Shown here in pieces: positions 25,439-27,192 of a stretch of 64,000 nucleotides of DNA. The stretch comes from Firmicutes bacterium CAG:582. GTDB taxonomy: Bacteria > Bacillota_I > Bacilli_A > RF39 > UBA660. Each line of letters starts with the position of its first letter. The first letter of the stretch is position 1. Under the pieces are notes generated by a model. That model searched no databases, was not told the DNA's origin, and was given only the letters and a program-made list of their open reading frames with translations. The stretch is from assembly GCA_000435515.1 (NCBI GenBank), contig FR884182.1:8123-72122 (forward strand), given 5' to 3'. The position numbers were made by a program, and so were the translations under genes.

Positions 25439-25588
25439 GGAGAGAACAAGGCGGAACCCGATGTTAGCATTGGCACCTCCTGTGTTCCTATTGAAGTTGA
25501 ACTGACCTGCAAGAACTCCATTGTCGTAATTGCCGCCTCGATTGAACCAAGGATACGAGGAGTCAACAAAGTTCGAATTGTCGCCGTA
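25439..25588 (-). repeat. DGR template repeat (TR), 150 bp
   Basis: Aligns base-for-base with 25786-25935 (offset 347). It differs at 14 positions, all TR plus-strand T, which is adenine on the coding or RNA-sense strand. Locally GC-rich in an AT-rich genome. Confidence 0.9.
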
Positions 25589-25693
25589 AAGAGTAAAAAG
25601 AGTCAAAAAGTCTAATTTAAACAACTTATAACCTACATTTATACTAAGACTAATAAATTAGAGTTTTAAACTAACCTACTAGACATAAATGCC

Positions 25694-25737
25694 AAAAAAG
25701 CGATTCCTTTCCGCTAAAAAAGAAGGCGGAAAGGAAT
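25694..25737 (-). terminator. 12-bp hairpin + U-run just downstream of VR (terminator and/or DGR target-recognition hairpin)
   Basis: ATTCCTTTCCGC (25703-25714) / GCGGAAAGGAAT (25726-25737), 11-nt loop. On the minus strand it is followed by CGCTTTTTTGG. Confidence 0.65.
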
Positions 25738-25782
25738 ATTAAAAGTGAAAAAAGTAATTGTAAAAAAACAAGTTTTTTTACA

Positions 25783-27192
25783 CTAGGAGAGAACAAGGCG
25801 GAACCCGAGGCCAGCACCGGCACCTCCTGTGCCCCTATTGAAGTAGAACTGACCTGCAAGAACTCCATTGCCGTAATGGCCGCCTCGATGGAACCAAGGA
25901 TACGAGGAGTCAACAAAGTCCGAAGAGTCGCCGTACCAACTATTATGGTATCTAGAGTTGTTGTCTCCGTCCAAATATGTTTTAAATGGTCCCATTTCTC
26001 CAGTTGCATCTCCAAGTATTCTATATTGATAAGATGTAAATGTTGATGATGCAGAGTATACATCATAATATTTAGAATCATAGTTAGCAAGCGTTGTAGC
26101 ACTAAAACCACTTAATCCTAATTGACCACTCATATATGAAGCTACATATTCGTGTGCTCCACCTGACATATCATATATCCCACTTATATTTCCAGTAGTT
26201 GTTGCAAGATAACCAATACTTGTATTATAGGCGTTATTATATGTGTTTCCATCACCATATGTTCCTGGATATGTTTGTTGATTTGTACTTGGAAGTGATG
26301 AATATCCAGTTTTATATGAACTGTTATTATTAATATTAACTTCCGCATTGATTCCATATTTGGAATGGCTTAAATATGCTACTGCTCCCCATTCTGTATT
26401 TTTCATCATATGGGAGTTCATTGCTCTTTTATAATTATATGATACTGTAAACATATTCATGACTGTTGAATTTCTCCATGAATATGAGTTTGGTTTTACA
26501 ATTATTTTGCTTGAATCACTTGAGTTCACTTGAGCTGCAGTTGTACTTGTTGCTCCTTTATATCCCGTTTCAAACTTACCAGCCCAGAAGCCATTTACTC
26601 CCATGCTTATAAATGCTGGATGAGTCATGTATTCTCCGTTTTTACAATTTCCACTTGACCCACTTGTCATTGGAGTTTTACATGATACTCCTGAAATATC
26701 TGTTGTATTAGTTGTATCAAACACGATATCTATTTCATGAATATTTTTTGAAGCTGTTCCAGTATTCCATAACTTATATTTATATTTTGGAATCCATACG
26801 AAGTAACTTTGAATATCGCTTTCTTTTATTGTATCTCCTACTTTATAACTTGCACCACTATTAAGGATAACTGCATTTGCCCAAACTTTATCACAGTAGT
26901 TATACCATACTTTACTTGTATCAGCATATGTTACAGTTCCATCATCTGACAATTTTACTGGTATTAAACCATCTTTTAAAACTGGCTCTGCAACTCCTTT
27001 TGAGCAAGAAGTTAAATTAGATGCTTTACTATAAAGCTCATCTAATGCATCTTGTACATTTTTGGATTTTAATAAAGATGAAGAATTATCATAATATACA
27101 TCTTTTCCAATAATTAAATCTGCGGCATATGCTACACTTACAAATAGTATTAATGCACACATACCAATTATTAATATTTTTTTATTTTTCAT
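25783..27192 (-). CDS. DGR target protein: secreted protein with C-terminal FGE-sulfatase/C-type-lectin-fold variable domain
   Basis: Signal peptide MKNKKILIIGMCALILFVSVAYA. KNTEWGAVAYL and WYGDSSDFVDSSYPWFHRGGHYGNGVLAGQFYFNRGTGGAGAGLGFRLVLS are typical CLec-fold VR scaffolds. VR ends 3 nt before the stop. Confidence 0.85.
   Translation of the reverse strand: MKNKKILIIGMCALILFVSVAYAADLIIGKDVYYDNSSSLLKSKNVQDALDELYSKASNLTSCSKGVAEPVLKDGLIPVKLSDDGTVTYADTSKVWYNYCDKVWANAVILNSGASYKVGDTIKESDIQSYFVWIPKYKYKLWNTGTASKNIHEIDIVFDTTNTTDISGVSCKTPMTSGSSGNCKNGEYMTHPAFISMGVNGFWAGKFETGYKGATSTTAAQVNSSDSSKIIVKPNSYSWRNSTVMNMFTVSYNYKRAMNSHMMKNTEWGAVAYLSHSKYGINAEVNINNNSSYKTGYSSLPSTNQQTYPGTYGDGNTYNNAYNTSIGYLATTTGNISGIYDMSGGAHEYVASYMSGQLGLSGFSATTLANYDSKYYDVYSASSTFTSYQYRILGDATGEMGPFKTYLDGDNNSRYHNSWYGDSSDFVDSSYPWFHRGGHYGNGVLAGQFYFNRGTGGAGAGLGFRLVLS
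25786..25935 (-). repeat. DGR variable repeat (VR), 150 bp, encoding the last 50 codons of the target gene
   Basis: See TR. The 14 substitutions cause 10 amino-acid changes, mostly at TR AAY (Asn) codons. Confidence 0.9.

Follow-up and report, generated by a model that had tools for sequence, protein, structure and literature searches.

A stretch of 64,000 nucleotides from Firmicutes bacterium CAG:582 (assembly GCA_000435515.1, contig FR884182.1), referred to below as the window, very probably carries a complete chromosomal diversity-generating retroelement (DGR) of the MSL–Avd–RT type that has recently been active in this species. Positions are given in the numbering of the 64-kb window, and the entire cassette lies on the minus strand, which is its sense strand. 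Read in that direction, it consists of a target gene ending in the variable repeat (VR), a hairpin, a terminator, a 5′ RNA element, the template repeat (TR), the 3′ RNA, a second terminator, and then the genes for a MutS-like accessory protein (MSL), the accessory protein Avd and the reverse transcriptase (RT). The two repeats were identified as the TR and VR of a DGR because their mismatches in the window fall on adenines only, and because a target, an Avd, an RT with DGR motifs and an MSL are encoded with them on the same strand.

The non-coding TR (25439..25588) and the VR (25786..25935) were aligned by computer without gaps at a constant offset of 347, with 136 of 150 positions identical and with a sharp end of the homology on either side. 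The pair was the largest repeat of the region in a repeat search, and no further VR-like copy, second VR or remote target was found in the 64-kb window. The 14 mismatches (25462, 25464, 25465, 25470, 25471, 25485, 25486, 25498, 25524, 25531, 25543, 25573, 25578 and 25579) are without exception plus-strand T in the TR, i.e., A on the sense strand, and the VR carries G, C, C, C, C, C, C, A, C, G, G, C, G and A (plus strand) at these sites. The TR has a G+C content of 49% and contains 35 sense adenines among its 150 nucleotides, so that the probability of all 14 mismatches falling on them by chance is 1.3e-10 (hypergeometric). The original prediction, made from an alignment by hand, had arrived at the same identity, offset, adenine count and VR bases, with every difference on a TR adenine, and the computer alignment bore it out in each respect, revealing no non-adenine mismatch.

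The VR is in frame with a 469-aa open reading frame (ORF; 27192..25783), of which it forms the last 50 codons (420–469), the stop codon TAG following directly at 25785-25783. The 14 substitutions alter ten codons (N>S, N>D, N>H, N>H, D>G, N>Y, N>G three times, and I>L) and none is silent; eight of the ten AAY codons of the TR are altered and none of its five third-position adenines. These are the ten changes that had been read from the sequence beforehand, as is the last stretch of the repeat, 23 nt without any A (TCGGGTTCCGCCTTGTTCTCTCC) that are the same in both copies and that reach 61% G+C versus ~27% in the genome. This invariant end fits a role like that of the IMH (initiation of mutagenic homing) element. 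The coding capacity of the TR amounts to ~4.5e17 protein variants, and no stop codon can be reached by adenine mutagenesis. A 91-aa ORF over the TR (25349..25624) was rejected as an artefact of mechanical ORF calling.

A pair of direct repeats undergoing concerted evolution can be produced by recombination alone, and it may be asked whether ordinary duplication, followed by random divergence or by homogenisation through gene conversion, would account for the two copies in the absence of reverse transcription. Random mutation would, however, have put 14 of 14 changes on adenines with the minute probability given above, and the same bias is seen again, independently, in the four other haplotypes as well as in 41 related loci. 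Furthermore, the process has one direction, only the coding copy varying, and third codon positions are avoided, and the changes are found beside an RT, an Avd and a covarying template RNA. Duplication is thereby effectively refuted, with a residual probability that is negligible.

The evidence for recent activity comes from five haplotypes of the same species, namely the window, L001, L081, L082 (= L083) and L084 (= L085). Over the five, 68 of 70 mismatches between TR and VR are at TR adenines. Haplotypes differ from each other at 13–29 sites in the VR and at 0–9 sites in the TR. Identities between strains are 84–90% for the VR and 95–97% for the TR, as compared with 92–95% for the rest of the target gene and 97–99% for avd and RT; the VR is the most divergent segment and changes at adenine sites. 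Ten TR sites are polymorphic, either among non-adenine bases or through the gain or loss of an adenine, and in ten out of ten the cognate VR carries the base of its own TR. At position 31, the TR has changed from T to A in three haplotypes, and in one of these the VR now has C. The TRs of L081 and L082 do not differ at all, while their VRs differ at 13 sites, all of them adenines. Identical TRs with 13 VR differences, together with the mirrored TR polymorphisms, point to activity after the split of very close strains. Within the compared sequences, the flow of information is shown to be adenine-specific and to run one way, from TR to VR. The claim of the original prediction that the pair bears the signature of mutagenic retrohoming and that the element has been active is thus upheld by the comparison of haplotypes and by the parts of the cassette, the VRs of related genomes being neither identical nor TR-like.

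The RNA in which the TR is embedded was compared across related loci. On its 5′ side (25623..25693), a stem (GGCATTTAT ... ATAAATGT), whose covariation was judged by eye only, precedes AGGTTATAAGTT (25634..25623), and this sequence provides the 5′ strand of a long-range duplex of 12 bp; the complementary 12-mer is found in the 3′ flank in nearly all loci. The 3′ flank or “spacer” (25225..25438), which covaries and matches the Rfam motif RT-14, begins with helix 1, in which 8 bp are formed between the nucleotides directly 3′ of the TR (25437..25430) and 25344..25337. Between the two strands of helix 1, a stem carries a conserved loop of the UUA(C/A)GG type (25360..25366). One nucleotide from helix 1 lies the 3′ strand of the 12-bp duplex (25335..25324). 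Behind it in the 3′ flank come a short hairpin spanning 25323..25309, A-rich single-stranded RNA (25308..25294), a long hairpin interrupted by two internal loops (25290..25254), and a terminator hairpin (GTGGATCGTTTCCAC) with its T run (25247..25225), which marks the end of the template RNA and is kept in relatives. The hairpin with the UUA(C/A)GG loop has a variable stem, its loop reads CUACGG in the window, and one sub-family has an extra hairpin inserted into the 5′ arm. The hairpin with the conserved loop might correspond to the Avd-binding stem-loop of the Bordetella phage BPP-1 element.

In an alignment of 22 loci covering four helices 3′ of the TR, 93.8% of the cells were paired versus 37–47% in controls with slid partners, and cells with double changes numbered 105 versus 21–30. 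In a second alignment (A3) of 21 loci, the 12-bp duplex was paired in 97.6%, with compensatory changes in 10 of its 12 pairs; for helix 1 and the 12-bp duplex together, 96.9% of the cells were paired and compensatory changes were seen in 14 of 20 pairs, the slid controls reaching 39–51%. By this measure of sequence covariation, the TR is shown to sit in a conserved RNA whose helices are maintained.

The terminator of the template RNA lies ~25 nt before the start of MSL, so that MSL, avd and RT would be expressed by read-through, and the amount of template RNA relative to protein may be set in this way. Scans for promoters were uninformative in this A+T-rich DNA, giving 39 sites where 37 were expected, none of them assignable. 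These two observations, together with the limit that a single assembled sequence cannot show present activity, would fit a fossil, i.e., a genuine DGR that diversified its target in the past and whose VR is now frozen, with a cassette that is unexpressed (or expressed at a low level, given the terminator between the TR RNA and the protein genes) or non-functional in this genome. Several features speak against it: MSL, avd and RT are intact, with the catalytic YMDD present and with 97–99% conservation between strains, the RNA helices have been maintained through compensatory changes, the VRs of strains that share the same TR differ at 13 adenine sites, and changes in the TR have their mirror image in the VR. 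The fossil explanation is accordingly considered unlikely, and a DGR that has been active in recent times is preferred.

How this active DGR would work can be outlined by analogy with the BPP-1 element. Transcription would begin near 25693 and end at the terminator near 25225. Pairing of the 8 nt that directly follow the TR with 25344..25337 would yield the template:primer duplex, and the adjacent 12-bp duplex (25634..25623 with 25335..25324) would be the stop duplex, with the short hairpin and the adenosines coming after it. A complex of RT and Avd would then self-prime cDNA synthesis from the RNA near G25337/A25336, copying the A-free 23-nt end first and the remaining TR afterwards, with random bases being incorporated opposite adenines, until synthesis stops before the 12-bp duplex. 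The resulting cDNA would then take the place of the VR, with the identical 3′ end and the hairpin immediately behind the VR as guides.

This last hairpin, a perfect stem of 10 bp with a 4-nt loop (TGTAAAAAAACTTGTTTTTTTACA, 25759..25782), starts 3 nt after the VR and is a candidate target-site hairpin or cruciform. A perfect stem of 4–13 bp with a loop of 3–5 nt was found no more than ~11 nt from the VR end in 17 of 20 related loci, with no conservation of the stem sequence, and in 13 of the 20 the stem adjacent to the VR was longer than in at least 95% of random windows. In BPP-1, homing depends on a stem just behind the VR, whatever its sequence (PMC3240598), and a VR-adjacent hairpin with an unconserved sequence matches this requirement. 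Further downstream, a G+C-rich hairpin followed by a T run (25694..25737) forms the intrinsic terminator of the target gene, and a comparable strong hairpin with a T run is present at the same place in relatives.

The target gene itself (25783..27192) ends 3 nt after the VR, and its 469-aa product is identical to CDB28679.1 of Firmicutes bacterium CAG:582 (GenBank protein) and belongs to a 90%-identity protein cluster of 541 sequences. In its layout, an N-terminal helix read from the sequence as a signal or anchor is followed by a conserved middle domain and a C-terminal domain that is like that of TaqVP from Thermus aquaticus, of the C-type-lectin/FGE-like kind, and that contains the VR. Among 15 members of the cluster, the hypervariable columns (423, 425, 435, 439, 441, 442, 450, 452, 454, 459, 461 and 462, with 4–9 different residues each) are exactly the ten AAY codons plus D441 and I462.

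The resemblance of the C-terminal domain to TaqVP was approached with profiles and with models. A profile of the full-length close target family had no match in the PDB, and a profile built from nine diverse C-terminal domains found TaqVP (5VF4) as its best match with E = 2.8e-5, and SUMF2 weakly. Weak matches to Pfam FGE-sulfatase, with E up to 1 (the best 5e-4), were obtained for five of nine aligned family members, the protein of the window not being among them. An AlphaFold2 (AF2) model made from a diverse alignment of 75 sequences had a pLDDT of 67 and a pTM of 0.75 (a pLDDT of 38 was reached with 51 close homologues alone), and Foldseek placed 5VF4 at the top with E = 1.1e-5 and a probability of 1.00. 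The next matches were weak and were to the sulfoxide synthases EgtB and OvoA, which have an FGE-like C-terminal domain. As modelled, the C-terminal domain of the target resembles a solved DGR variable protein.

In sister loci (L020, L021, L067, and many proteins, e.g., P0149-P0254), the VR-bearing module is fused to a type IV pilin N_methyl motif (Pfam), and other proteins with the module carry PF16403 or Laminin_G_3 domains, where the target of the window has a plain signal or anchor instead. No paper linking DGRs with type IV pilins was found in the literature searched. In the target gene of L035 (4014-4277), two tandem VR-like segments are separated by a run of N, which may be an assembly artefact arising from VR heterogeneity or may be real. 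Directly upstream of the target gene in the window, a 266-aa gene (27205-28005, minus strand) with an N-terminal membrane helix and a weak Listeria-Bacteroides repeat match ends 12 nt before it; the gene also stands upstream of the target in L001 (89% identity) and in L003/L004 (41%), and the two products may work together.

The MSL gene (24828..25199) encodes 123 aa from a TTG start at 25199, preceded by a ribosome-binding site (RBS; AAGGAGGTG at 25214..25206). The product, with an isoelectric point (pI) of 5.4, was recognized by Pfam MutS_I (E = 1.3e-9; 38.7 bits for a cut-off of 20.6) and by the NCBIfam model of the MutS N-terminus (E = 6.4e-8). A longer ORF of 154 aa, starting at 25292, was rejected as another artefact of mechanical ORF calling that reaches 93 nt too far into the conserved non-coding RNA, its first 31 “codons” being the long hairpin and the terminator of the template RNA (25199-25292). 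The TTG start was chosen because homology with relatives begins at about residue 32 of the longer ORF, because the RBS and start are conserved, and because the protein is called with 123 aa in other assemblies. The residue aligned with Phe36 of E. coli MutS, which stacks on the mismatch, is F in 74 of 75 MSL proteins and Y in one, and the residue aligned with Glu38 of MutS is hydrophobic in all 75 (I, L, V, C or F). It is a guess that MSL probably handles the mismatched heteroduplex of cDNA and target.

The avd gene (24476..24838) shares 11 nt with MSL and 16 nt with the RT gene through overlaps, and encodes 120 aa with a pI of 9.6, matching Pfam bAvd with 56.6 bits (cut-off 40) and the PHROG family “Avd protein of DGR” at 5.9e-19. 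Avd is present in ~74% of DGRs and is therefore not obligatory. The hallmark of a DGR RT is the sequence [LIV]GxxxSQ in motif 4 together with a catalytic YxDD. In the 342-aa RT (23463..24491) these are IGNYTSQ at residue 188 and YMDD at residue 220, Pfam RVT_1 matches above its cut-off, PHROG identifies a reverse transcriptase at 6e-103, and the nearest NCBIfam model is that of the group II intron RT, with 98 bits far under the cut-off of 300. By motifs and family profiles, then, the enzyme encoded near the TR is of the DGR type. In L084 (6216-7340), the RT is called with 374 aa and aligns to that of the window in two pieces (907 nt and 133 nt), which suggests an insertion of ~85 nt near the 3′ end of the gene.

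In genome contigs, 210 relatives of the RT were found, mostly in metagenome-assembled genomes (MAGs) of “uncultured Bacilli” and of Tenericutes from the gut. Among 80 loci that were fetched, the order MSL-avd-RT, with both accessory genes immediately ahead of the RT, is kept in at least 74, and adenine-biased TR/VR pairs were found in 41, a scan that selected for adenine bias and thus speaks for recurrence and not for an unbiased rate.

Phages are the carriers of many DGRs in the gut (PMC8144416), TaqVP, as the nearest solved relative of the target, is encoded by a prophage, and blastn against phages gave weak matches of the RT to crAss-like phages. Taken together, these points would fit a DGR borne on a prophage and diversifying not a cellular protein but a phage receptor-binding protein for the switching of tropism, as in BPP-1. 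The phage matches, however, cover 2–4% of the query at 72–74% identity, and no relative was found in IMG/VR, a search that reaches close relatives only; being short and weak, and with no IMG/VR relative beside them, they led to the prophage explanation being dropped as very improbable. The flanking genes, moreover, are chromosomal housekeeping and regulatory genes, namely those for a topoisomerase IV/gyrase A subunit, holA, an RNase HII-family gene, a two-component system, an ABC transporter and tRNA-His. The ORFs scanned in the vicinity of the cassette included neither a phage structural gene nor an integrase, PHROG gave no match for the target or its neighbours, and the locus is syntenic in five strains. 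Finally, a signal or anchor stands at the N-terminus of the target, whose relatives have type IV pilin leaders. The chromosomal DGR remains the preferred interpretation.

Several points weigh against this interpretation and have to be set beside the evidence above. In L001, two of the 17 mismatches lie off adenines, and activity is deduced from differences between assemblies, so that the strain of the window could carry a silent copy. The promoter, the transcript ends, the priming nucleotide and the cDNA stop are inferred by analogy. No IMH/IMH* difference is present inside the repeat, and directional cues are more likely to reside in the flanks, i.e., in the hairpin after the VR and the RNA helix after the TR. 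The alignment A3 was anchored on sequence motifs, and five of its 21 5′-flank motifs were placed by hand. The target itself had no significant match in Pfam, NCBIfam or PHROG, and its AF2 model is only of moderate confidence, while Avd, at 65.9 bits, is under the cut-off of 80 of the NCBIfam model DivGenRetAVD. Lastly, RT-14 scores 33.5 bits in the window (E = 0.0092 over 651 nt), under the gathering score of 48.1, which makes the copy of the window a divergent relative and not a member of RT-14 by Rfam’s own criterion. At the same position in relatives, the scores are 48.5 (L039), 45.3, 44.5, 38.1 and 35.6 bits. With Rfam at the gathering threshold, no RT motif was found over 11 related loci, and the link to RT-14 comes from scans by E-value.

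Two neighbouring regions differ between related genomes. A 121-aa ORF (29045-29410, minus strand) matches only the C-terminal part of a 412-aa gene with SLFN_AlbA_2 and HATPase_c_4 domains that is intact at the same place in L081-L084, and in the strain of the window it is probably a truncated gene or a pseudogene. The region downstream of the DGR (20845-21851 and 15727-22393, minus strand) encodes a helicase of 1455 aa that includes an MTES_1575/DUF559 nuclease domain, as well as a radical-SAM protein and a small AAA ATPase with a weak nSTAND3 match. In L001, ~3.3 kb of other DNA takes the place of the radical-SAM segment. The region looks like a variable island, possibly for defence.

With the DGR, one secreted or anchored protein of a common, uncultured bacterium of the human gut is marked as being under programmed hypervariation, with ~4.5e17 possible variants, which points to a ligand-binding function that changes between hosts or strains. 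A wider reading was also put forward, which has three parts and which as a whole is regarded as rather doubtful. [quoted passage not shown] It proposes further that MSL, with its retained Phe and lost Glu, would be a specialised binder of the adenine-mismatched heteroduplex of cDNA and VR that either shields it from host mismatch repair or directs its resolution, and that the template:protein ratio would depend on the terminator with which the template RNA ends.

Of the known systems, the prototype is the DGR of BPP-1 (mtd-avd-TR-brt), with which the element shares the adenine-specific transfer from TR to VR, the position of the VR at the 3′ end of a protein with a C-type-lectin fold, an Avd, an RT with [LIV]GxxxSQ and YxDD, and a hairpin directly downstream of the VR of which the structure is kept rather than the sequence (PMC3240598). 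In the BPP-1 ribonucleoprotein (RNP), the elements described are an Avd-binding stem-loop, a template:primer duplex, the cPRT Stop, the Thumb Ring and a bRT-binding stem (bioRxiv 10.1101/2023.10.23.563531). The order in the RNA of the window is alike: behind the TR come a stem-loop, a template:primer duplex and, next to it, a stop duplex of ~12 bp formed with the 5′ flank, then a short stem-loop with adenosines and single-stranded RNA after it, and finally a long stem interrupted by two internal loops (bioRxiv 10.1101/2023.10.23.563531). Such RNA elements have been predicted in 207 of 278 Avd-type DGRs (bioRxiv 10.1101/2023.10.23.563531), and the architecture found here was therefore to be expected. 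The same paper mentions neither covariation nor Rfam (bioRxiv 10.1101/2023.10.23.563531), which suggests that the evidence from covariation and the connection with RT-14 are new, if minor.

The two elements also differ in a number of ways. That of BPP-1 is borne by a phage, whereas the present one is chromosomal and has an additional MSL gene; its order is VR, TR, MSL, avd, RT, which puts the TR ahead of avd and leaves the 5′ strand of the stop duplex in an intergenic region, whereas in BPP-1 this strand lies inside avd. The template strand of the primer duplex is located just outside the TR/VR homology, in contrast to BPP-1, where it is inside the TR, and the duplexes are separated by one nucleotide instead of two. 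Unlike in BPP-1, the RNA ends in an intrinsic terminator and the repeat contains no IMH/IMH* difference, and no sequence similarity between the two RNAs is detectable.

The gene content fits the DGRs with MSL described as “Architecture D”, including the Legionella DGR (Wu et al. 2018, PMC5758913), in which a MutS-domain-I protein is likewise found beside avd and RT, with no HRDC. The length of 123 aa is within the published range of 112–283 aa (PMC5758913), and the pI of the MSL is more acidic than the published 7.2 +/- 1.7. Like the Msl DGRs of Bacteroides (bioRxiv 10.1101/2024.11.15.621889), the element is a cellular one, and the protein that it diversifies is exposed on the surface of a gut bacterium. 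It departs from the published MSL DGRs in its host, an uncultured low-G+C Bacillota lineage (CAG:582 and MAGs of “uncultured Bacilli”), and in its target, which is neither a type V pilin nor a lipoprotein. The element may already be included in published catalogues of DGRs. Among variable proteins, TaqVP (PDB 5VF4) is the best match both by profile and by fold, and in both proteins the VR is the C-terminal end of the domain; the identity is nevertheless 14% and the TM score 0.35–0.42, and the target described here, which is not prophage-encoded as TaqVP is, additionally possesses a conserved N-terminal half as well as a signal or anchor.

These results leave the present understanding of DGR function unchanged; hundreds of related loci provide a large natural data set, and the little-studied MSL protein is opened to study. 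The remaining comparison is with Rfam RF02921, the RT-14 motif (Weinberg et al. 2017, PMC5737381), which the 3′ flank of the TR matches over the whole model, with its small hairpin, A-rich stretch and long hairpin with internal loops of the GUUAGUA/CGAAUAC type. Only part of the conserved RNA is covered by the model, in which helix 1, the terminator and the long-range pairing with the 5′ flank are absent. The authors of the motif had guessed that the RT motifs other than RT-10 serve DGRs (PMC5737381). With the link made here, an orphan Rfam motif gains a function, and a template-RNA architecture that had been solved for one phage element receives independent confirmation from covariation in distant elements of the Bacillota.

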